From Limisphaerales bacterium (GTDB lineage Bacteria; Verrucomicrobiota; Verrucomicrobiia; Limisphaerales; JAEYXS01), in contig CBDIPT010000001.1 of NCBI GenBank assembly GCA_965283725.1, positions 719,730 to 783,729 on the forward strand: DNA of 64,000 nucleotides. Direction: 5' to 3'. This document shows, one piece after another, positions 3,235-14,794 of the stretch. Numbering within the stretch: position 1 is the first letter of the stretch; every line of letters starts with the position of its first letter. The notes beneath the pieces are model-generated. The model was not told the origin of the DNA, did no database searches, and saw only the letters and a program-made list of their open reading frames with translations. The translations under genes were made by a program, and so were the position numbers.

Positions 3235-4053
3235 TTAGTCATCCCATCCAGCCCGATGCGGCCATTGCTGGATGTAGGCGAGCTGTGCTTCGCGATCAGG
3301 GACATCCGTGCGTTGGGAGCTGGTGAGGAAACGCTCCGTATAAGCGGCGTCGAGGGCTTGGACGTTCACCACGTTGCCATCCACCGTGAAGACTGCACGC
3401 CACGCGCCACAGCCTATTTCAAAGACTCCGGTGCGACGACGCTTGATGCGCCGGGTGCGGTGCGGGGCGGGATCGCGCGCGAGGAACTCATTCATGCGCG
3501 GGCGGAAATCGATGCCCCAATTCGCCTTGAGCCATTCGGCTTGCGTTTGCGCCAGAGCAGAGAGAGCTACGGTGAATTGTGGCGGGGCTTGGTGCAACGC
3601 TTCCACTTCATCCGTCCAGCCGGCTTTCTCGCCGGGGAAAATATCGTAAGCGGGGATGTAAGGTTTGATATCGAAGACGGGTGTACCATCCACGAGATCG
3701 CACGCGCCGAGGATGAGCTTGCGGCCTTCCACGCCGATGAGTTGCACGGGCGTGAGGCCAAGCGGATTCGGGCGGTAAGGCGAACGCGTGGCGAAGACGC
3801 CGCGTCGTTTCGAAGGGCCTCGTGGTGGCAGCACGAGCGGCTTCCACGCGCTGTTCCGATGAAACCACCAGATGAGCCAGATGCGCGTGAACCCGGCGAC
3901 ATCTTGCAAGGCCTGCTCGTAATCATAATCCGGCAGCAGCTCGAGGATGTTCCGCTCGGGCTCTTCTTCCAACGGCTGGTGCCGCGCATGAAACTTAAGT
4001 GGTTTCTGCGTGGCGATAAACCCAATGGGTTTTAATTTGAGCCCGTTGTCCAA
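3235..4053 (-). CDS. TsaA/TrmO-family protein (tRNA m6t6A37 methyltransferase-like) with a C-terminal extension
   Basis: The conserved TrmO/YaeB core motifs are RIWLIWWFH, GVFATRSPYRPNPLGLTPVQL and DGTPVFDIKPYIP. Confidence 0.7.
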   Translation of the reverse strand: MDNGLKLKPIGFIATQKPLKFHARHQPLEEEPERNILELLPDYDYEQALQDVAGFTRIWLIWWFHRNSAWKPLVLPPRGPSKRRGVFATRSPYRPNPLGLTPVQLIGVEGRKLILGACDLVDGTPVFDIKPYIPAYDIFPGEKAGWTDEVEALHQAPPQFTVALSALAQTQAEWLKANWGIDFRPRMNEFLARDPAPHRTRRIKRRRTGVFEIGCGAWRAVFTVDGNVVNVQALDAAYTERFLTSSQRTDVPDREAQLAYIQQWPHRAGWDD

Positions 4054-4110
4054 AGTGCTTGTCCGTTCAACTAGTAACCAGATTTCGTGATCACGTCGAG
4101 AACGAGACGC

Positions 4111-4479
4111 TTACGATTGTGGCCCGCGATACACGCACCGCGCCGTGCATGTCTCGGCCACGACGACTTCGCTGAGCAACGGCAAGCGTGGCTTCAACTC
4201 GTTCCAGATCCAGATGGCGAGGTTTTCGCTCGTGGGATTTTCGAGGCCTTTGACTTCGTTCAGGTAGTAGTGATCGAGGCGGTCCCAGAGCGGTTTGAAA
4301 GCGGCCTTCACATCGGCGTAATCCATCACCCAGCCAAACGCGGGATCGACTTCGCCGGTGACGACGATCTCCACCTGAAAACTGTGGCCGTGCAGGCGAC
4401 GGCATTTGTGCGTCTCCGGCAGGTGAGGCAGGAGGTGGGCGGCTTCAAATTGAAAGGTGCGGCGCAGGTCCATTTTCAT
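4111..4479 (-). CDS. queD: 6-carboxy-5,6,7,8-tetrahydropterin synthase / 6-pyruvoyl-tetrahydropterin synthase family (QueD-like)
   Basis: [58 protein letters not shown] carries the PTPS/QueD Zn-binding and catalytic pattern (H...C..LHGH). The ATG at 4479 forms an ATGA overlap with the stop of the upstream luxC-like gene. An alternative start lies at 4497. Confidence 0.75.
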
Positions 4480-5846
4480 ACAGAATCTTTCTCCCAATCA
4501 GTCCACGTCACGAGGTCGTTGAGGGCCGGGCGGCCATCATGACGCCACGTGAGCGGCGGTTTTTGCATCTTGCCGAGCGAGCAGATGCGCGTGACACCCC
4601 ATTGGGCGAAACGTAAGGCCAGCTTTTGCGCGGTGACATCCGTCGCCGCCAGGCCGACCGTGGAAATCTGGCCGCGCATCGGTTCCAGCGTGCGCAGCAA
4701 TTGCTCCTGTCCCGTGATCTCTTTCACGTAGATGAACCGGTTTAGGCAGGAGAGCTGGAAGCCAGTGTCGCTCTCGAAAATAACCGTCCACGCAGTGGAG
4801 TTTTCACTGCACCAGAGTTGCGTGCCGGGTAAGTGCGCGGCGCGGACTTCGTAGAAGGCGCGGCGGGTTTGGATGGCCGCTGCACTGTGAGTGTCCAGCG
4901 GTCCACGCGGTTCGGCCGTTTCGCGGGTGGCAAGTTCATCAGCGAGCTTGGCCGCGAATTGGGCCGGATCAACGGAACCGCCGCGCTCCACATAGATGAC
5001 GTGCGGGCTGAGGCAACCGAGTTGGTTCCACGCCACGATGTCATCGGCCGCCTGCTTCACAATGTCCGCCATGGTCCAATCACTCAGCATCTCGCCCGCG
5101 ATGTAACCAAAGCTCACGCGATGACCGTAGCCGAGGAAGCGCACGCGAATGGGCAGACGCTGGCGGATATCCGCAAGCGCTTCATCTGAGCCCGTGGCGG
5201 TGACGCAATCGGCTTCGGAAAAGAGGGCGTGTTCGATCTCCCGTTCACCACCCGGCCACTCAGCGAGTTCAAGGCACGCGCCTAGTTTGGCATCGGCTTC
5301 ATAGAGCGAATGCGCGAAGAGACGAGGCAAGAACGAAGCACCGCGTGCGCATTTCACGAACTGGGCGGAGCGCGTGAGCAAGCCGAGGATGAGGCTCATC
5401 CACGTAGGGTTCGGCAAGTTGCCTGCCGCGATGTGCACGAGCAGTTCCGGCCCACTGGCGAAGGAGGTGCGATCACCGATACGTTCCTCTTTGCTCGCTG
5501 TGAACGCATCAAGGCGCTTAGCGTGGCCGAGCTCTTGTACGAGTAATGTCTCTAAGTTCTCTTCGGTGATCTGGCTGAAGAAATCATCGATGCCGCGTTC
5601 GATGGTGTGCCTGGAAAAGCCGGTGTGACGCGGGCCTTCATTCAAGGCGAGTTGACGGAAGGAATAGGTCTTCTGCTGCCATTGCGCCGCCACTTCACAG
5701 AGCAGACGGACGATACTGCTCGTGGGTCGTGCGATGAGGAACTGCTGCCGGTTCCGCTTCAACGTTTGACATGCTTCCGTGATGAGCGCTCCGGTGAGGG
5801 AGGCTTCCGGTGGCAGATCGGCGAGGAAGTAGTTGGGCAGGTTCAT
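4476..5846 (-). CDS. LuxC-like acyl-CoA (fatty acyl) reductase, aldehyde-dehydrogenase superfamily
   Basis: [29 protein letters not shown] and the catalytic-Cys context [13 protein letters not shown] match the LuxC family pattern. The length of about 456 aa is typical. Confidence 0.7.
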
Positions 5847-5861
5847 GGCGCGACAGTAGTT

Positions 5862-7112
5862 TTAGGCTTTGGGCGGATGTTCCAAGGCTTGTTCACGTTT
5901 ACGGATCGCGTGCAAGCACGGCAGGCCGATCAAGGAGACCAGCACGGTGACCATGAGCATGATGTAGATGGGATAGAACGCCGTCGGATTTCCCGTCGCG
6001 GAGGTATCGAGCCTTTTCACCCAATCGCCGATGATCCACGGAGCCAGACTGCCGGTGCAGCCGCCGATGGTGATGAAGAAACCGAACACGCGTCCGCGAA
6101 TGGAATCGGGCACGGCATCCATCAAGGCAGCTTCGATCATCGGGTAGCTGCCCATGAAGAAGAAGCCATAGACGAATAACGGCAGGAAAATCAATTCGGC
6201 CGGAAAACGCGGCGTGATAAAAACGAGCAGACCAGCAGCTACTAGAACCACCGCCGTCCAGCGCATCCGGTTCTTCACATGACCGAACACCAGATTGCTG
6301 AGAGTAGCGGCCAAGAAGATGATGCTCAGCGTGGAGCCCGTCAGCTTGGTGTCGAAGTGATGGGCTTTTTGCAGGAAAAGTGAGCTAAGGCTGCCCATGC
6401 CGAAGCCGGTGAAATCCCGCAGACCAAAGAAGCATGCGGCCGCGATAAAAAAGATCCAGAGCGCCTGTGTGGGGAACAAGGGCACGGATTTGGCTGCGGC
6501 ATGGGAGTCAGCATGCGCCTCGGTTTGGCAATCCGAGGCAAAGCGGTTGAAGATCGCCGCCATGATGAGTCCCGCAAGGCCGAATTCGAAGACTGGTTTG
6601 CGCCACGCCGAAGGACCGATCATCGGTTCTAGCATTTCCGCCCGCCAACCGGCGTAGATTGGGCCGATGAGAAAGCCGATGCCAGCACCGATGCCCAGCA
6701 AACCGATGGCCCGGCCCGTGTTTTCGGGGTAGAGCCGCGCGACGAGTGAAGTCGCTGCCGGATGGAAGAGGCTGCCACCCAGACCGGCGACGATGACGCA
6801 GGCCAGGGCGGATTGATAAGAATTTGCATTGGCCAGACCGATGAAGCCCACGCCATTGATCGCGAGGCCGATGGCGAGCAGATGTTTTTTGCTGAACTTG
6901 TCCGCCAGGATGCCCGCGAGGTAACTGGGCAGGAAGTAAGATAGCATCATCACTGTGACCAGCGATGTGGCTTTGCCTTCGCCGTCGAATTCCAAGTCGT
7001 CACGGATGAGCAGGTAAAGCGGTACGAGGGCGACCTGATAGACATGCGTGAAGGCATGCAGGACGGCACTCAGGAAGAGCGTGCGGGAACGATGCTCGGC
7101 AGGTTTACTCAT
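5862..7112 (-). CDS. MFS transporter
   Basis: It is a 416-aa polytopic protein with about 12 hydrophobic segments. It has an MFS-type loop motif (GILADKFSKKHLL) between TM2 and TM3. Confidence 0.85.
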   Translation of the reverse strand: MSKPAEHRSRTLFLSAVLHAFTHVYQVALVPLYLLIRDDLEFDGEGKATSLVTVMMLSYFLPSYLAGILADKFSKKHLLAIGLAINGVGFIGLANANSYQSALACVIVAGLGGSLFHPAATSLVARLYPENTGRAIGLLGIGAGIGFLIGPIYAGWRAEMLEPMIGPSAWRKPVFEFGLAGLIMAAIFNRFASDCQTEAHADSHAAAKSVPLFPTQALWIFFIAAACFFGLRDFTGFGMGSLSSLFLQKAHHFDTKLTGSTLSIIFLAATLSNLVFGHVKNRMRWTAVVLVAAGLLVFITPRFPAELIFLPLFVYGFFFMGSYPMIEAALMDAVPDSIRGRVFGFFITIGGCTGSLAPWIIGDWVKRLDTSATGNPTAFYPIYIMLMVTVLVSLIGLPCLHAIRKREQALEHPPKA

Positions 7113-7121
7113 GTAAATTGT

Positions 7122-8312
7122 TTATCGGGCCATCAGCGAACAGCCGCGCGATTCAGCTTGGGCGGCGCGGCCAAGCAGTTCAAAACCAGCTTCGTGACGG
7201 ATGGCGAGGTCTTCGGTCTGGACGGCAGCGATGGACCACACGTTGGCCAGATCATGGATGCGTACCAAGCCGGTTTCACCCACGGTGGCTTCCGCTCCGG
7301 TCTCGGGCGATACGATGACCACCCGTGCCCAAGGGGGAAAGCGGAAGCGGCGAGGGGAAGCGGCGCTACAAACGCGGTCATAGGCTTGGGAACTGAGCTC
7401 GCTCATGCCGTACTCGCAGAGGATGGCTTCATCCGGGATGCCGAGACGAATTGAAAGCTGGCGATGCAGTTCGGCCTTGGGCAGTTCGCGGGAGCGCCCT
7501 TTGTAGCCGCCAGTTTCCATAAGCCGCGAACCCGGAGGGAGCTTGAAATGCAGGTTGCGCTGTTCCAATTCATCCAGTAGGTGAACGAAGAGGAAGGCGG
7601 TGCCGAGCAAAAGGACCGGTTGCTGCGAGGTGATAGACCCCTCAACCGTCGCAAAAACTTCGGCGAAGTTGATCTCCCAAGTTTTGTCTAAATTTAGTGT
7701 GCCAAAGAATTGCGTTTTGCCGGGGGTGAATGCGTTTTGCACGGTCTCGAACATGTGGATGAGCGAGGAATTGGGGCAAGACGCGGGCGGTGGCGTGAGA
7801 GGGAGGATATGGATGTTGGCTTGAAACGACTCACACCTTACCCCGGTCCTCTCCCCGTTGAGGGGAGAAGGAGAAGATGTGGTCGCTGCGAGTTTGGGTG
7901 CGGCGCTTATCGTTGGTAGCACATGCTTCTGAAACCACGGGAGCAGTGAGTGCTCGTAAACCGCCAAAGATTCCACACTATGAAAATGGCGGCTGGGACG
8001 TTGCTCGGTGGTGCCGCTGGAGTGGAATACGGTCGTGCGTCCGGAATTAGGCAAACTGCTCAGTTCCAAATCCTTAAAGGCTGTTGTAGGGAGCGCGGGA
8101 ATATCCTGCCAAAGGGTAACCGTAGAGGGGGTTTTACGACGGCGATCACACAAACTACGGTAGGGGGTGATGGCGTCGTATTGCAGTCGAAACAGGTCTA
8201 AAGCCAAGATTTGGAACTCGTTCTCGCCCAAGGACTCAGGCTGGCTGGCGGCACGGGAAATCGCATCGCATAAGCGACGGGCGAAGTCTTGAAATGGACG
8301 TTGATTCGTCAT
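7122..8312 (-). CDS. LuxE-like acyl-protein synthetase / acyl-adenylate-forming enzyme
   Basis: VFHSSGTTEQRPSRHFH (SSGTT AMP-binding-like loop), METGGYKGRS and CEYGMSELSSQAY match the LuxE-family pattern. Only 9 nt separate it from the MFS gene. Confidence 0.7.
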   Translation of the reverse strand: MTNQRPFQDFARRLCDAISRAASQPESLGENEFQILALDLFRLQYDAITPYRSLCDRRRKTPSTVTLWQDIPALPTTAFKDLELSSLPNSGRTTVFHSSGTTEQRPSRHFHSVESLAVYEHSLLPWFQKHVLPTISAAPKLAATTSSPSPLNGERTGVRCESFQANIHILPLTPPPASCPNSSLIHMFETVQNAFTPGKTQFFGTLNLDKTWEINFAEVFATVEGSITSQQPVLLLGTAFLFVHLLDELEQRNLHFKLPPGSRLMETGGYKGRSRELPKAELHRQLSIRLGIPDEAILCEYGMSELSSQAYDRVCSAASPRRFRFPPWARVVIVSPETGAEATVGETGLVRIHDLANVWSIAAVQTEDLAIRHEAGFELLGRAAQAESRGCSLMAR

Positions 8313-8434
8313 GTGCGGTTTTTATTGGAGACGCTGATTTGGATCAGCGCCACCGGCTGGTTTTCCGCGACAGCCGGACGGATAATGAAGCAGGCTAAGG
8401 CTGCTTGTGCAAGTGCGGGATTAGCAGGCTTTGG

Positions 8435-8767
8435 CTAGGCGTTATCCCCGGTTTGCTCCACATGACTATCAAGTTCACCGGCGAAGGCCTTACGGGTCAG
8501 CTCGATGTGTTCTTTGAGCAGGGAGGATTCGTCCACCGACAGGTTGCCGCGCGTCTTGAATTCCAACATTTCCAGCAGATCGATAAACATCTTGGCGGAT
8601 TCGAGGTCTTTCGGCGCGGCCAGACCGGTTTCGGGGTCGGCGATCTGCCCCAGCATCATCATGGCGAGCTGGGAATGCTGCAAAACGAGGCCGGTGAACA
8701 GATGGGCCATGATTTCATCCCGGTCGGCTTGGGCCAAAGATTCGTCTGAAGGAAACGTATGTTTCAT
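8435..8767 (-). CDS. DUF1844 domain protein
   Basis: FTGLVLQHSQLAMMMLGQIADPETG...DLESAKMFIDLLEMLEFKTRGNL fits the DUF1844 consensus as I recall it. It has a 4-nt overlap with the upstream Lon-N gene. Confidence 0.6.
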   Translation of the reverse strand: MKHTFPSDESLAQADRDEIMAHLFTGLVLQHSQLAMMMLGQIADPETGLAAPKDLESAKMFIDLLEMLEFKTRGNLSVDESSLLKEHIELTRKAFAGELDSHVEQTGDNA

Positions 8768-9453
8768 TTTTTGCCAGTGTTACGAGCGCGTTTGATGACG
8801 GCGAGCAGGAAATGCACGAGATGTTTCAGGCGTTCCTCGATCGCGGGCGTCTCCAGCAGCACCTGCCGTTCGGCGGGGCTGGTCAGGAGCATGCCGCCGA
8901 TGGCATCCACAAATATCTCGGGTTCCTCGATTTTTTCGATCTGGCGAAGAAATTGCTTATAGGATTCCGCGGTTTGGGCATCAACGGGCGAACTGGTCTC
9001 GTCGCCGGGCACTTTTTGGATGATCTCCGCGCCGGGATAGAGCCCTTCATCGAAGATCAGGGCGACCAGCTCGCGGGCTTTGCCCATGAGTGCATCGGCG
9101 GTGACGGGGTTGGCCGGAGCCGCGGGCAAAACCTCGATCTGATGCACCCGGTAGGGTTTGGACTGGGTCTGCTTGCCGAGTTGAATTCTGGTCAAACCTT
9201 GAACAATCAGGTGCGATGTTCCGTCTTTATTCTCGACGGAAGCGCGGATGAGGCCGATACCGGCTACTTCGGTGGGCGTTTCGCGGACCCGGTCAGGGTG
9301 CTGCATGGCCACGGAGAACATCCGGTGCGTGGCCAAGGCATCAGCCAGCATGGTGCGATAACGCGGCTCAAAGATATAGAGCGGCAGGATGGTATGCGGG
9401 AACAAAATAGCGTTCGGCAAGACCATCACCCCGATCTCTGACGGTAAATCCAT
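8764..9453 (-). CDS. LON N-terminal substrate-binding domain protein (no AAA or protease domain)
   Basis: IGVMVLPNAILFPHTILPLYIFEPRYRTML is the canonical start of the Lon N-domain. The protein is only 229 aa. Confidence 0.75.
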   Translation of the reverse strand: MDLPSEIGVMVLPNAILFPHTILPLYIFEPRYRTMLADALATHRMFSVAMQHPDRVRETPTEVAGIGLIRASVENKDGTSHLIVQGLTRIQLGKQTQSKPYRVHQIEVLPAAPANPVTADALMGKARELVALIFDEGLYPGAEIIQKVPGDETSSPVDAQTAESYKQFLRQIEKIEEPEIFVDAIGGMLLTSPAERQVLLETPAIEERLKHLVHFLLAVIKRARNTGKK

Positions 9454-9545
9454 GGCCGTAATGTAGAACTGGTCTGGCGGTATGCAAGCGGCACGGTGCG
9501 TGCTGATGCCTTTACAAATCGAATAACGAAAAGCAAAGTGAACTT

Positions 9546-10421
9546 ATGAAGTCGAAAGTGGCAATAATCGTTCTGGTGATCGTTTGCGGGATTCTCGCCC
9601 TCTGCTGGCGGCGTGACAAGTCTGAGGCCGCCAAGCAAAAGGAGGCCGATGCCCTGGTGATCCAGACGCGTGATGGCGAAGTGACCAAGCTCAAGGGTGA
9701 CCTGCACCAGCAGAAGCTCGTCAACGACAAGCTGGACAGCACGGTGCAAAACCTGACGCAGGAAACCCTGAGCCTCTCCAACAACCTGACCCGCACCTCG
9801 GCGGACCTGACGAAGACGAGCAGCGATCTCTCCAAGACCGCCGCCCAGTTGAAGCAGACTGCGCAAGAGGCGGAAGAGACGAAGCGCCGGGCGGAACAGG
9901 CGGCGGAGATCGCGAAGCAGGAAATCGCCAAGCGTGATGCCCAGATCGCCGAGCTGGAAGTGAACCGCGACCAGTTGACGAACAAGATGGCCGCGTTGAG
10001 CACCTCCATCCAGGGCTTGGAAAAGAATATCGCCGACACGCAGCAAAAGCTCACCGCCGCGCAAGGTGACCGGGAGTTCCTGCTGAAGGAATTGAAACGT
10101 TTGCAGACGGAAAAAGCCGAGCTGGAACGCCAGATGGCGGACCTCGATTTCCTGCGCAAGCAGATCTCGCAATTGCGGGAAGAGCTGAACATCCAGAAGC
10201 GCCTCGAGTGGATCCGCCGCGGCATCTACGGTGCCGGGGATAACCGCAAGGGTGGCCAGTTGATGACGGATGGCTTCATCAAGCCGCCGACCAGCACGAA
10301 GGAAGGCACCAACAGCGCACCGGGTCTCGAAGTGGAGATCAAGCGGGATGGTGGCGTGAAGATCAATTCAACGCCGACGAACGCCCCGGCCGCTCCCGCA
10401 CCTGCAACGGTGCCTAAATGA
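9546..10421 (+). CDS. Membrane-anchored coiled-coil protein, function unknown
   Basis: An N-terminal TM helix (VAIIVLVIVCGILALCW) is followed by about 200 aa of heptad-like, K/E/Q/L-rich sequence. It has an ATGA overlap with moaA. Confidence 0.6.
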   Translation: MKSKVAIIVLVIVCGILALCWRRDKSEAAKQKEADALVIQTRDGEVTKLKGDLHQQKLVNDKLDSTVQNLTQETLSLSNNLTRTSADLTKTSSDLSKTAAQLKQTAQEAEETKRRAEQAAEIAKQEIAKRDAQIAELEVNRDQLTNKMAALSTSIQGLEKNIADTQQKLTAAQGDREFLLKELKRLQTEKAELERQMADLDFLRKQISQLREELNIQKRLEWIRRGIYGAGDNRKGGQLMTDGFIKPPTSTKEGTNSAPGLEVEIKRDGGVKINSTPTNAPAAPAPATVPK

Positions 10422-11485
10422 GTCACGCCCAACTGCTGACCGATTCTTATGGCCGGGTGATGCGGGACCTTCGGGTCAGTGTCACCGACCGGTGTAACTT
10501 TCGCTGCCTCTACTGTCTGCCGGAGACGGAAGAGGCAGCGAATTTTTATCGTTCCAAGTTCGATATCCTCAAGAATCCCAATCCGGCCAAACCCATCGCG
10601 CTGAACTGGAAACCCAAGGCGCAGATACTCACGCTGGAAGAGATCGAGCGGGTGGTGCGGCTGTTCGCGGGCTTGGGCATCGAGAAGATACGCATCACAG
10701 GTGGCGAACCACTCTTGCGCAAAGGCGTGGAGCAGTTGATCGGTAACATTGCTAAGATCCCAGGGGTGCAGGATATCGCCATCACCACGAACGGGTTTCA
10801 TTTCCAACCGAAGGCGCAGGCCTTGCGCGCGGCCGGCTTGAAGCGGGTGAGTTTCAGTCTGGATTCACTGGACCGGGACAACTTCAAGAAAATCACGGGC
10901 CGGGATGGTTTGCAGGAAGTGCTGGATGGTATCCGGTTGGCGCGGCAATTGGGCTTTGCGCCCATCAAGGTGAATGCCGTGCTTATCCGCGGGGTGAATG
11001 ATCACGAGCTGGAAGCACTCGCGGAGTTTGCCCGCGCCGAGGACGTCTCGTTCCGTTTCATCGAGTTCATGCCGTTGGATTCCAAACATGCCTGGCTCAA
11101 GGAATTGGTTGTCAGTGCCAAGGAAATCCTGGCGCGTTTGCAGGCGAAGTTTGATCTGCAGCCGGTAAAGTCCACGAATGTCTCGGAGACGGCCAAGCGG
11201 TGGGCGTTCCCGGATGGGCGAGGGGAGATCGGCATCATCGCTCCAGTCAGCGAACCGTTCTGCGGCCACTGCAATCGCATCCGGCTGACGGCTGACGGCA
11301 AGATCCGCACCTGCCTGTTCAGCCTTGGTGAGCATGATCTGAAACCGCTGTTGCGCGGCGGGGCGAGTGATGAGGAGATTCGCCAGCAACTGAAGGGGAT
11401 CGTGTTGCAGAAGGAAGACCGGCACCACATAGGAGAACCGGAATTTCAGCAGCCGGAGCGCTCGATGAGTTGTATCGGGGGATAA
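10418..11485 (+). CDS. moaA: GTP 3',8-cyclase MoaA (radical SAM, molybdenum cofactor biosynthesis)
   Basis: LRVSVTDRCNFRCLYCLPE is the CxxxCxxC radical-SAM cluster motif. The C-terminal CGHCNRIRLTADGKIRTCLF is the second cluster motif. Confidence 0.9.
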   Translation: MSHAQLLTDSYGRVMRDLRVSVTDRCNFRCLYCLPETEEAANFYRSKFDILKNPNPAKPIALNWKPKAQILTLEEIERVVRLFAGLGIEKIRITGGEPLLRKGVEQLIGNIAKIPGVQDIAITTNGFHFQPKAQALRAAGLKRVSFSLDSLDRDNFKKITGRDGLQEVLDGIRLARQLGFAPIKVNAVLIRGVNDHELEALAEFARAEDVSFRFIEFMPLDSKHAWLKELVVSAKEILARLQAKFDLQPVKSTNVSETAKRWAFPDGRGEIGIIAPVSEPFCGHCNRIRLTADGKIRTCLFSLGEHDLKPLLRGGASDEEIRQQLKGIVLQKEDRHHIGEPEFQQPERSMSCIGG

Positions 11486-12614: not shown

Positions 12615-13505
12615 ATGCAGTTCATACGGGACATTCATAAGGCGTGCGCGCAGGCGCAGCGTCCGGCCATTTCGTTCGAATTCTTTCCGCCCAAGACGGC
12701 GGAAGGCGATGCGTCTCTCTTGGAGAAGACGATTCCCGAACTGATGTCCCTGCGTCCTGATTACTGCTCTGTCACCTACGGCGCGGGGGGCAGCACGCGG
12801 GACAAGACGTTGATGATCGTGGACCGCATCCAGCGCGAGCATAAGCTTACCGCGATGTCCCATCTGACGTGCGTGAACAGCACCAAGGATGAACTGGCAG
12901 CCGTGCTCAAGCAGGCGAAGGACTTGGGCATCAAAAATATCTTGGCCTTGCGCGGTGATCCGCCGGGCGGCACAGGCGAGTTCAAGAAGACCGAGGGCGG
13001 TTTTGAGTTCAGCTACGAGCTCGTGGCTTACTTGAAGCAGTTGAACGAGTTTTCCATCGGTGTGGCCGGCTTTCCGGAAGGGCACATTGCCTGCAAGGAA
13101 GGCAAGCACGTGGACTGGCAGCGGTTGGCCGCGAAGATTGCGCATGGCGCCGATTTCGTGGTCACGCAGTTGTTCTTCGATAACGCTGATTTCTTTGAAT
13201 TTCGCGATTACCTCACGAAGCTGGGCGTCAAAGTGCCGATCGTTCCGGGCATCATTCCGGTGATGAGCGGTTCCCAGATCAAACGCTTCACCGCGCTGTG
13301 CGGGGCGCAATTGCCCGCCAAGTTGCTCAGCCGTTTGGACCCGCTCGGCGACAATGATGAGGCCGCGAAAGAATTCGGCATCGAGTATGCCACGGAGCAA
13401 TGCCAGGAACTCATCCGAGGCGGCGTGCCGGGCATCCATTTCTACACCTTGAACAAGGCGTATTCTACGAGCCGCATCGTGAAAAACCTCAATCTGCCGA
13501 AGTAA
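12615..13505 (+). CDS. metF: Methylenetetrahydrofolate reductase
   Basis: ISFEFFPPKT, SVTYGAGGSTR, HLTC, LALRGDPP and GFPEGH are MetF signature blocks. I chose the start at ATG 12615 (MQFIRDIH). Confidence 0.9.
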   Translation: MQFIRDIHKACAQAQRPAISFEFFPPKTAEGDASLLEKTIPELMSLRPDYCSVTYGAGGSTRDKTLMIVDRIQREHKLTAMSHLTCVNSTKDELAAVLKQAKDLGIKNILALRGDPPGGTGEFKKTEGGFEFSYELVAYLKQLNEFSIGVAGFPEGHIACKEGKHVDWQRLAAKIAHGADFVVTQLFFDNADFFEFRDYLTKLGVKVPIVPGIIPVMSGSQIKRFTALCGAQLPAKLLSRLDPLGDNDEAAKEFGIEYATEQCQELIRGGVPGIHFYTLNKAYSTSRIVKNLNLPK

Positions 13506-13527
13506 ACGGCCTGGTTTTAAAAATAAA

Positions 13528-13558
13528 AAAGCCGCGCATCAACATGCGCGGCTTTTGC
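13528..13558. terminator. Bidirectional rho-independent terminator between the convergent metF and fadL-like genes
   Basis: GCCGCGCAT-caac-ATGCGCGGC forms a 9-bp GC-rich stem. It is flanked by an A-run upstream and a T-run downstream. Confidence 0.6.
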
Positions 13559-13573
13559 TTTTAAGCCCGGAGA

Positions 13574-14794
13574 TCAGAACCGATACCCGACGGAAAAGTT
13601 CAGGGAATGGTTGAAGAATTTGAAGGTGCCGTCTGCAGATTGGCCGCCGATCGAGGGCGTGCTGCCCGTGATGGTGCGGGCGGGGCCGGTGATGATCTGA
13701 TACGAGACCGCCCAGCTCCACTTTTCCAATTGCCGACCGATACCAAAGCTGCCCACGTGCAGGTTGGTGTCCGGCGTCAGCGGGTTGAAGTTCACTTCGG
13801 AGGTCGAGTTCTCGCTGTAGAAGTAGCCGATGCTGGCGTAGTAACCATCCCTCAGCTTGCGGGTGATGCCGAACTCATAGAGGAACGAGGATTTCCAATT
13901 GAAAGCGAACGGTGTGTTGCCGGAAGCCTTTTCGAAAGTCACGGTGTTCAGGGAATCCCAATCCGTCCAATCGATGTTGAATTCAAAGTTCCAGTCCGGC
14001 GTGGGCCGGTAGGAGATGCCGCCCATGATATATTGGGGGAATTGGATGGTGGCCCGGGTGGTTTCCTCGGCGGCATAGGGCATGGCGACGGAGTGACCAC
14101 GGAAGGTCATCTCGGAAGGGCAACGGTAGTTGACCCCGAAAGCGAGCTTTTCATGCGGCTGCCAGCGGCTGGAGAGGGTGAACCCGTAGTCCCAGCCGAT
14201 CCCCTTGAACTTGAATTCATCCCCTGCAGTGGGCAGGAAAATGCCTTGGCGCAACTCGACGCGGCCATAATTGATCGTGGGGCCGACGGCGAAGGATAAC
14301 GAAGGCAGCGCTTGCCAGGCGATCACCGGATTCACCGTGGAATACATCAGGCGGCCTTCCAGAGCCATGGTGCGGAAACCGCTGGTCTCCGGCCATTCTA
14401 TGCCTAAACCAAAGGGGGCGTAAGTACCCACACCGAAAGAGAAGTCACTGTCTTTAAGGGAATGGACGAGATACATCTGCGGCACGGGCTGGACCTCGAA
14501 CAGGGAATGCGCGGTGCCGCCGGTGGGCGAATGGTAGGTCGAGTTGACTGAGGTGATGTAAAAGCCCAATTGAGCCTGGGTCCCCTCCAGTTGCGTGATA
14601 CCAGCGGGGTTGTAATACATCGCGGCCGGCGTATCCGCCGTCGCGGTGAAGGCATTGCCCCGGGCGATCGCCGCGGCATCCTGGTTGGCGATCCGGAAAC
14701 CGATCGCGTGGGTGGTGTTGGCGGTGAGCAGGCTGCTGGCCGCCAAGGTCAGCGCACAAAGCTGGTTCCGTTGGGTTTGGGTTGGAGTCCGCAT
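13574..14794 (-). CDS. FadL/OmpP1/TodX-family outer-membrane hydrophobic-compound channel
   Basis: It has a signal peptide followed by GFRIANQDAAAIARGNAFTATADTPAAMYYNPAGI, the conserved FadL N-terminal hatch region. The rest is an alternating beta-strand pattern ending in a terminal F. Confidence 0.8.
   Translation of the reverse strand: MRTPTQTQRNQLCALTLAASSLLTANTTHAIGFRIANQDAAAIARGNAFTATADTPAAMYYNPAGITQLEGTQAQLGFYITSVNSTYHSPTGGTAHSLFEVQPVPQMYLVHSLKDSDFSFGVGTYAPFGLGIEWPETSGFRTMALEGRLMYSTVNPVIAWQALPSLSFAVGPTINYGRVELRQGIFLPTAGDEFKFKGIGWDYGFTLSSRWQPHEKLAFGVNYRCPSEMTFRGHSVAMPYAAEETTRATIQFPQYIMGGISYRPTPDWNFEFNIDWTDWDSLNTVTFEKASGNTPFAFNWKSSFLYEFGITRKLRDGYYASIGYFYSENSTSEVNFNPLTPDTNLHVGSFGIGRQLEKWSWAVSYQIITGPARTITGSTPSIGGQSADGTFKFFNHSLNFSVGYRF

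Follow-up and report, generated by a model that had tools for sequence, protein, structure and literature searches.

In the canonical branch of bacterial queuosine synthesis, QueC converts the carboxylic acid 7-carboxy-7-deazaguanine (CDG) to the nitrile preQ0 with ATP and ammonia, and QueF converts preQ0 to the aminomethyl compound preQ1 with NADPH. To our knowledge, the textbook route offers only this one way from CDG to preQ1, via the nitrile and by QueC and then QueF. Acids are turned into primary amines through an aldehyde in the cascades that combine a carboxylic-acid reductase (CAR) with an omega-transaminase, and the same logic is followed from a thioester by PigE in prodigiosin synthesis. 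Acid activation and reduction are also the task of the LuxC-LuxE fatty-acid reductase of Photobacterium phosphoreum (complex PDB 7XC6), a two-protein system made up of an ATP-dependent acyl-protein synthetase and a thioester reductase. Here we analyze a minus-strand operon, luxE-mfs-luxC-queD, and the conserved leader RNA in front of it, which lie in a window of 64,000 nucleotides (nt) of a Limisphaerales bacterium (the whole stretch of DNA analyzed; positions 719,730 to 783,729 of contig CBDIPT010000001.1, assembly GCA_965283725.1). The leader-luxE-(mfs)-luxC-queD unit is probably a queuosine-precursor operon that supplies the QueC and QueF steps by an undescribed route, from CDG through an aldehyde to preQ1, because, in bacteria that lack queC and queF, a preQ1-riboswitch-like leader is followed by genes that join a predicted acid-to-aldehyde reductase to queD.

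The source genome belongs to the Verrucomicrobiota and comprises 5.7 Mb in 16 contigs, with a completeness of 90.7%. Five genes, among them one for a transporter of the major facilitator superfamily (MFS), are arranged head to tail at the locus, and every Pfam assignment is above its cut-off:

7122..8312, minus strand: luxE-like gene for a predicted acyl-adenylate-forming enzyme or acyl-protein synthetase, 396 residues, Pfam LuxE 57.9 bits
5862..7112, minus strand: gene for an MFS transporter, 416 residues, Pfam MFS_1 119.6 bits
4476..5846, minus strand: luxC-like gene for a predicted acyl-thioester reductase of the aldehyde dehydrogenase type, 456 residues, Pfam LuxC 243.8 bits
4111..4479, minus strand: queD, for 6-carboxy-5,6,7,8-tetrahydropterin synthase, 122 residues from its ATG, Pfam PTPS 124.9 bits
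3235..4053, minus strand: trmO/tsaA-like tRNA methyltransferase gene, 272 residues from a TTG start, Pfam TrmO_N 125.4 bits

The luxE and MFS genes are 9 nt apart and the MFS and luxC genes 15 nt; the luxC stop and the queD start overlap as ATGA (ATG 4479-4477, TGA 4478-4476), and the trmO-like gene follows queD after 57 nt. An earlier note on this DNA had described the same order and spacing, and the coordinates of the open reading frames (ORFs) agree with it in every detail. It had also stated that luxA, luxB and luxD are missing. This was borne out by a Pfam scan, which found no such genes next to the operon, either here or in any of 79 related loci from other species, whose LuxC proteins are about 60-85% identical to the one studied here.

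By its sequence, the QueD of the operon is canonical. It scored 107.6 bits against TIGR03367 (cut-off 89.25), it is the sole PTPS-family match in the genome, and its HKCRRLHGH stretch contains the Cys-x3-His-Gly-His motif (CxxxHGH) that we take to be the signature of the QueD-type members of the COG0720 family. Because QueD looks canonical, an exotic QueD-fold lyase is disfavored. The genome further encodes FolE2 (291 bits) and QueA (466 bits), each of which exceeds its equivalog cut-off, a Tgt protein (473 bits) with the motif GGVSVGE, presumably the mark of a bacterial preQ1-type pocket and not of the queuine type, and a QueE-like radical S-adenosylmethionine protein whose best matches are all five QueE models. 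The earlier note had judged the operon to be unlike queuosine biosynthesis and had proposed QueD residues and further que genes as a check. The residues are canonical and the genes are present, but folE2, queE, tgt and queA are scattered over the genome and form no single cluster (QueG and QueH lay outside the search). With this QueD and these four genes in the same genome, that judgment is not supported. Nor is the note's idea of a QueD-type lyase or condensation step following the reductase, since QueD most likely acts before the reductase.

QueF (PF14489) had no match in the genome, and the only match to QueC (PF06508), a weak one of 22.6 bits, was the GMP synthase GuaA. Judged from this gene content, the predicted hole in the pathway runs exactly from CDG, a carboxylic acid, to preQ1, the matching aminomethyl compound.

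We compared the source genome and 20 relatives, which together span 14 families of one order, with a wider panel of 29 further Verrucomicrobiota genomes, of which 8 have this LuxC type, 20 have no LuxC and 1 has a LuxE-LuxC fusion. (In our labels, G marks genomes of relatives, L related loci and C contigs.) In the order, LuxC and QueD were found in all 21 genomes, adjacent to each other in 20, and Tgt in 20. G312 alone had QueC and QueF, encoded in a complete additional queF-queC-queE-queD-folE2 cluster on a contig apart from the operon. The 8 further carriers, from 4 further families and 2 classes, have all kept QueD and all lack QueF; QueC is absent from 7 of them, and the eighth, G174, has a weak QueC-like match of 108 bits on a tiny contig. 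Conversely, QueC, QueF and QueD were all present in 19 of the 20 genomes without LuxC and all absent from the remaining one, and the genome with a true LuxE-LuxC fusion of the classical type (G297) contains QueC and QueF. Pooled over the Verrucomicrobiota, QueF is absent from 28 of 29 genomes with the LuxC type, and QueC and QueF are present in 20 of 21 genomes without it (Fisher test, p = 9e-12, kinship among the genomes being ignored).

G312, whose genome is 82% complete, has both routes, with the canonical cluster on contig C67 (L098, positions 8515-10826) and leader-luxE-luxC-queD on contig C205 (L099). This double set may be a recent acquisition, a transitional state or a binning artefact. 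A second putative LuxE-LuxC fusion, in G153, was rejected because it consists of two genes in different frames.

The luxE-(mfs)-luxC-queD arrangement is not due to chance, because QueD lies behind LuxC, on the same strand and within 1 kb, in 74 of 75 loci from other species and LuxE ahead of LuxC in 59 of 59, counting for each gene only the loci with enough sequence beside it. The luxC-queD adjacency, for which the earlier note had suggested a synteny check, is thus conserved. LuxE, LuxC and QueD also keep this order in two distant lineages of Verrucomicrobiota, of which one belongs to another class and has a LuxC with only 25% identity. One protein of this LuxC family is recorded under the name of the cultured bacterium Pedosphaera parvula Ellin514. 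The flanks vary among the related loci and the LuxE-LuxC-QueD trio is kept; the next commonest neighbors, all of them housekeeping genes (MutY, a class-V aminotransferase, MetRS and MscS), each occur in a minority, up to about a third of the loci.

The MFS gene is an optional insert, found between luxE and luxC in only 17 of the 59 loci, and its product matches no specific NCBIfam family. The export step envisaged in the earlier note thus gains no support. By eye, an MFS-like ORF stands directly 3' of luxC in a locus labeled Myxococcota, and a similar one lies about 450 nt past the aminotransferase in loci labeled Eremiobacterota or proteobacterium (L131 10899-12077; L114 8986-10299; L107 8976-10307). 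The ORFs of L131, L114 and L107 are unrelated to the MFS gene of the window by tblastn; the association of a transporter with luxE-luxC may perhaps be recurrent.

Both reductase components are recognizable members of their families and remote from the enzymes of luminous bacteria. The LuxC-like protein scored 243.8 bits against PF05893 (cut-off 21), covering model positions 5-401 of 401, and the LuxE-like protein 57.9 bits against PF04443 (cut-off 24.9). Against the NCBIfam equivalogs, scores were far under the cut-offs, with 67.5 bits for LuxC against the long-chain-fatty-acyl reductase NF052251 (cut-off 750) and 36.1 bits for LuxE against the long-chain-fatty-acid--protein ligase NF052244 (cut-off 550). 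No lux operon context beyond LuxE was seen in the window or the related loci.

The catalytic features of such a reductase appear to be intact. Cys278 of the LuxC-like protein (QLGCLSP) aligns on the Cys of the DQQAC motif in 7XC6 chain A, which we take to be the acylated catalytic Cys, and the surrounding D-Q-x-G/A-C-x-S-P is invariant in 10 distant homologues. Among solved structures, 7XC6 chain E comes closest to the LuxE-like protein (E=5e-8), and the SSGT motifs of the two align. SSGT, ETGG-KG, EYGM-EL-SQ and a C-terminal R/K-G-C are invariant in 10 distant homologues of LuxE; the last of these, about 5 residues from the C-terminus, is also kept in the classical-type fusion, and we infer that its Cys carries the acyl group. 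Because the pair is far from the luminous enzymes yet keeps the catalytic Cys and the adenylation motifs, a carboxylate-to-aldehyde module acting on a substrate other than a fatty acid is a fair reading, and the carboxylate activation and reduction to an aldehyde envisaged in the earlier note stand as a fair prediction. The P. phosphoreum system and the pair studied here thus have in common both Pfam domains, the reductase Cys and the SSGT motif and C-terminal Cys of the synthetase, whereas their relation is remote (E about 1e-8), luxD and luxAB are absent here, and the genes associated with the pair are queD, queE and an aminotransferase instead of lipid genes, with a 7-deazapurine carboxylate as the proposed substrate.

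The LuxE-like protein of the window contains a low-complexity insertion of about 30 residues (…ISAAPKLAATTSSPSPLNGERTGVRCESFQAN…; window 7800-7900, minus strand), which is absent from the distant homologues, varies in length among close relatives and overlaps a GC-rich hairpin.

A candidate for the last step is provided by a class-III aminotransferase. In G008 the order is aminotransferase-LuxE-LuxC-QueD, and the best match of this class-III aminotransferase in the source genome (46%) is an orphan class-III enzyme of 434 residues (gene at C11:151269-152573). It is distinct from the HemL, BioA-like and ArgD-like enzymes of the genome and below every NCBIfam cut-off, including that of the PigE model, against which it scored 252.6 bits. 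A scan of its subfamily returned 80 loci, in about 52 of which a canonical queE lies directly upstream on the same strand; the queE-linked aminotransferases, one of them in a record labeled Methylacidimicrobium, are 58-71% identical to the copy of the source genome. In 10 of the 80 loci, labeled Myxococcota, Eremiobacterota, Deltaproteobacteria, proteobacterium and Verrucomicrobia, the aminotransferase adjoins luxE or luxE-luxC, and two of these read queE-aminotransferase-luxE-luxC. By record names, at least 8 assemblies are common to the aminotransferase set and the luxE-luxC-queD set. QueD, QueE, LuxE, LuxC and the aminotransferase form one web of neighborhood links. A scan with the LuxC of G008 matched nothing besides that LuxC itself.

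The only queE of the source genome (C8:162296-163048) belongs to another subtype, with about 32-37% identity to the queE that lies beside the aminotransferase in most relatives, and the place of queE upstream of the aminotransferase is taken by a gene for a dehydrogenase/cytochrome c protein of 1003 residues. In this genus, the operon that joined queE and the aminotransferase has apparently come apart. No conserved leader was found before queE-aminotransferase, where the best 8-mer occurs in 11 of 48 leaders, compared with 57 of 63 for luxE. The ArgD-like aminotransferase ORF of the genome (C2:567271-568449) has an odd low-complexity C-terminus (…RVWASCLVLSCRLICRRSRRVTRLPPSSSSIACTAWA), which suggests a frameshift or sequencing error.

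From these data we infer a substrate, an order of steps and a role for the aminotransferase. FolE2 would convert GTP to dihydroneopterin triphosphate, from which the QueD of the operon would make 6-carboxy-tetrahydropterin (CPH4) and QueE, encoded elsewhere in the genome, would make CDG. The LuxE-like protein would adenylate the carboxylate of CDG and hold it as a thioester on its C-terminal Cys, and the LuxC-like protein would take over the acyl group on Cys278 and reduce it with NAD(P)H to 7-formyl-7-deazaguanine. The class-III aminotransferase (C11:151269-152573) would turn this aldehyde into 7-aminomethyl-7-deazaguanine, which is preQ1, for Tgt to put into tRNA and QueA to carry on to queuosine.

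Such a route would share with the QueC/QueF branch its proposed start (CDG) and end (preQ1), the upstream enzymes FolE or FolE2, QueD and QueE, and the downstream enzymes Tgt and QueA. In contrast to that branch, it would pass from acid to thioester, aldehyde and amine without an amide or a nitrile, its proteins are unrelated, and its carriers are generally without QueC and QueF. It would differ from the CAR cascades and PigE in its components, which are separate LuxE/LuxC-type proteins and no multidomain CAR or PigE fusion. A search of the accessible literature found no paper in which queuosine synthesis is connected with LuxC, LuxE, an acyl-protein synthetase or an aldehyde intermediate. That a QueC/QueF-free preQ1 route is standard in the whole verrucomicrobial order and in lineages of several other phyla, and in the order stands under a fourth preQ1-I-like riboswitch type, has in our estimate an even chance of being correct.

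The leader RNA before luxE has the following parts:

8382..8413, minus strand: promoter-like region (TTGCAC ... CATTAT), predicted from a pattern in related loci
8313..8380, minus strand: conserved leader RNA of preQ1-I-like layout, defined by 8-mer conservation and a covariance model (51.8 bits)
8377-8371 paired with 8359-8353, minus strand: predicted leader helix P1, an inverted repeat
8370-8360, minus strand: leader loop of 11 nt, UCGCGGAAAAC
about 8350-8330, minus strand: lineage-specific hairpin inserted in the leader linker in this genus, with an A-rich tail after the hairpin
8318-8315, minus strand: CCGC of the leader, complementary to the loop GCGG at 8368-8365 (putative helix P2), 2 nt before the luxE AUG
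45-nt leader RNA: GGCUGUGGCGGAAAACCAGCC...AAAAACCGCAUG

The consensus of related leaders reads GGCUGU(G/C)GCGGAAAACCAGCC, followed by an A-rich linker of 7-12 nt, CCGC and the AUG. Of 63 leaders, 56-57 contain the exact 8-mers of GCGGAAAACCAGCC, although the LuxE proteins encoded behind them are only about 50% identical. Across 65 distinct sequences, 96.4% of the cells in the proposed helices are paired. The two outer P1 pairs covary (pair 5-27 is CG in 35, AU in 6, UA in 6 and GC in 4), and the five inner P1 pairs and the four P2 pairs (GCGG/CCGC) never vary. The same sequences are invariant in the G that closes P1, the U after its 5' strand and the AC before its 3' strand, and also in the A-rich tail and the P2 segment by the AUG. 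In 41 of 62 related loci a promoter-like pattern, TTGNNN-N16-18-TANNNT, ends 5-9 nt before the leader hairpin; the copy in the window deviates from this pattern, and a scan of the operon for generic sigma-70 promoter and terminator consensus sequences gave nothing useful.

In the sequences searched, the element is confined to one verrucomicrobial order and always stands ahead of luxE. It is single-copy in the source genome, the covariance model found it only in the source locus and in G312 (95 sources, 1.33 Mb of other loci), and luxE comes next in 74 of 75 informative metagenome contigs with the exact leader motif. Weak matches to the model in L124 and L153 fall inside a DnaA-like coding sequence.

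This layout resembles that of the preQ1-I riboswitches (Rfam RF00522; types I-III are reviewed in PMC11625349). Both are of the same size class, about 35-45 nt, with a P1 of 5-7 bp, an 11-nt loop, an A-rich tail and a 3' segment by the start codon that is complementary to the loop, and in both a G closes P1, a U follows its 5' strand and AC precedes its 3' strand. The described hallmarks of preQ1-I are the G closing P1, the U after the 5' strand, the AC with the specificity C, an A-rich L3 and occlusion of the ribosome-binding site by P2 (PMC11625349), and the invariant positions of the leader coincide with the ligand-contact positions of preQ1-I (PMC11625349). Unlike preQ1-I, the leader is missed by the Rfam models, and its P2 would be a GC-only helix of 4 bp that ends 0-2 nt before the AUG and does not lie over a Shine-Dalgarno sequence. 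A known Rfam riboswitch upstream of luxE was ruled out by Rfam searches of the window, of a minimal copy and of 30 related loci, the last of which gave no match at the gathering score.

We regard the leader as a candidate for a new preQ1-I-like riboswitch type with a putative ligand and pseudoknot. Its roughly 40 nt would form an H-type pseudoknot with preQ1 or a close 7-deazaguanine as its ligand, and the bound RNA would hide the nucleotides immediately ahead of the luxE AUG, giving feedback control. We think it somewhat unlikely, and still worth weighing, that the element is instead a protein-binding operator (inverted repeat GGCTG-N11-CAGCC) or a plain 5' stabilizing hairpin with a conserved start context. 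Its core is indeed an inverted repeat, no Rfam model matches, and 9 of the 11 proposed pairs never vary and hence give no test of the structure. Neither an operator nor a plain hairpin accounts well for the non-palindromic 11-nt loop and the distant CCGC, which are likewise invariant, nor for the outer stem pairs that change in a compensatory way; the promoter-like site would put the hairpin at the 5' end of the transcript, and the invariant positions match those that contact the ligand in preQ1-I.

Several points weigh against the proposed preQ1 route and its control by the leader. The operon contains queD and not queE, and in the source genome the aminotransferase and queE are linked neither to the operon nor to each other. 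The genomes compared are related, so that the Fisher test overstates their independence and the real support comes from about five separate lineages. The complementarity is imperfect, as G312 keeps both routes and G174 has its weak QueC-like match of 108 bits. For the leader, no Rfam preQ1 match was obtained at E<=10 (171 nt of the window; 81 nt around the minimal copy), and P2 never varies, so that it offers no covariation by which to judge the pseudoknot.

Since the operon contains queD and not queE, the substrate could instead be what QueD makes. The reductase would then convert CPH4 to 6-formyl-tetrahydropterin, which would be aminated and ring-contracted by QueE to preQ1, or would lead to a separate pterin product. 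The translational coupling of queD to luxC, in an order kept in 74 of 75 loci, is in keeping with this idea, and CPH4 bears the required carboxylate just as CDG does. We nevertheless consider it distinctly unlikely, as QueE would have to accept a substrate without the carboxylate, the LuxE/LuxC pair is joined to queE and the aminotransferase in other lineages, and a pterin side product would leave the supply of Tgt and QueA without QueC and QueF unexplained. 6-Formyl-tetrahydropterin is an isomer of a folate intermediate; a bypass of the folate enzyme FolB through this compound was rejected as needless, because FolB is present in 21 of 21 genomes.

A further possibility is that preQ1, preQ0 or queuine is salvaged, and that QueD, QueE, LuxE/LuxC and the MFS protein make and export another 7-deazapurine or pterin metabolite. 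The presence of an MFS gene in the operon of the window and in 17 of 59 loci would suit an exported product, and the gene searches did not cover the salvage transporters YhhQ, QueT and QrtT. The MFS gene is missing from most loci, however, and the system behaves like a housekeeping one, being single-copy in 21 of 21 genomes of the whole order and complementary to QueC and QueF. The Tgt motif, moreover, presumably reads as the bacterial preQ1 type and not as the queuine type. We therefore hold salvage combined with a different product to be very unlikely.

Least probable is an ordinary fatty-acid reductase, one that serves fatty aldehyde, alcohol or wax metabolism and stands with a housekeeping queD in an old operon without sharing its function: the Pfam names LuxE and LuxC and the only solved relative, the fatty-acid reductase complex 7XC6, point that way, but both scores fall far short of the equivalog cut-offs for LuxC and LuxE, the neighborhood contains no luxD, luxAB or lipid genes, the flanks vary while the LuxE-LuxC-QueD trio is conserved, the complementarity to QueC and QueF and the links to queE and the aminotransferase would be unexplained, and the sole classical-type LuxE-LuxC fusion (G297) coexists with QueC and QueF.

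Beyond luxE and queD, the surroundings of the operon are variable. The trmO-like gene encodes a member of the TrmO family (TIGR00104, 121 bits, cut-off 93.25). Its place beside queD is peculiar to this genome: the gene was missing from that position in 6 close loci and in 4 same-genus genomes and is therefore a local neighbor outside the operon. On the other side, the spacer between a DUF1844 gene and the luxE leader is 122 nt in the window; in several close relatives it contains an ORF for 195 residues (L004 3794-4381), absent in the window, whose product resembles a hexapeptide-repeat acetyltransferase by eye.

Near LuxE/LuxC in a small-genome family, there is a gene with a MoCF_biosynth domain (by Pfam) and a MoaC-like neighbor (by eye) (L011 6271-6774; L014 6254-7263), and in the window a MoaA gene lies at 10418-11485, about 2 kb from luxE. 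The proximity of molybdenum-cofactor genes is probably a coincidence, though both pathways start from GTP. A thiamine pyrophosphate (TPP) riboswitch (L014 15434-15548, 70.2 bits) lies about 5 kb off the LuxE/LuxC pair of a small-genome verrucomicrobium and is not adjacent to it. A strong GC-rich hairpin at 13448-13638 of the window (AAAAGCCGCGC…GCGCGGCUUUU) has A-runs and T-runs beside it on both strands and gave sub-threshold Rfam matches to terminator-containing families; by its sequence it resembles an intrinsic terminator that acts in both directions between convergent genes.

If the proposed preQ1 route is correct, the step from CDG to preQ1 has a second solution, and many genomes now scored as incapable of queuosine synthesis or as dependent on salvage would be those of producers, which would affect predictions of micronutrient exchange in soils and microbiomes. 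The LuxE/LuxC-type two-protein reductases would gain a defined non-lipid substrate, with a bearing on thousands of orphan 'acyl-CoA reductase' annotations and on biocatalytic acid-to-amine conversion. The leader would add a new small riboswitch type whose ligand is readily testable.

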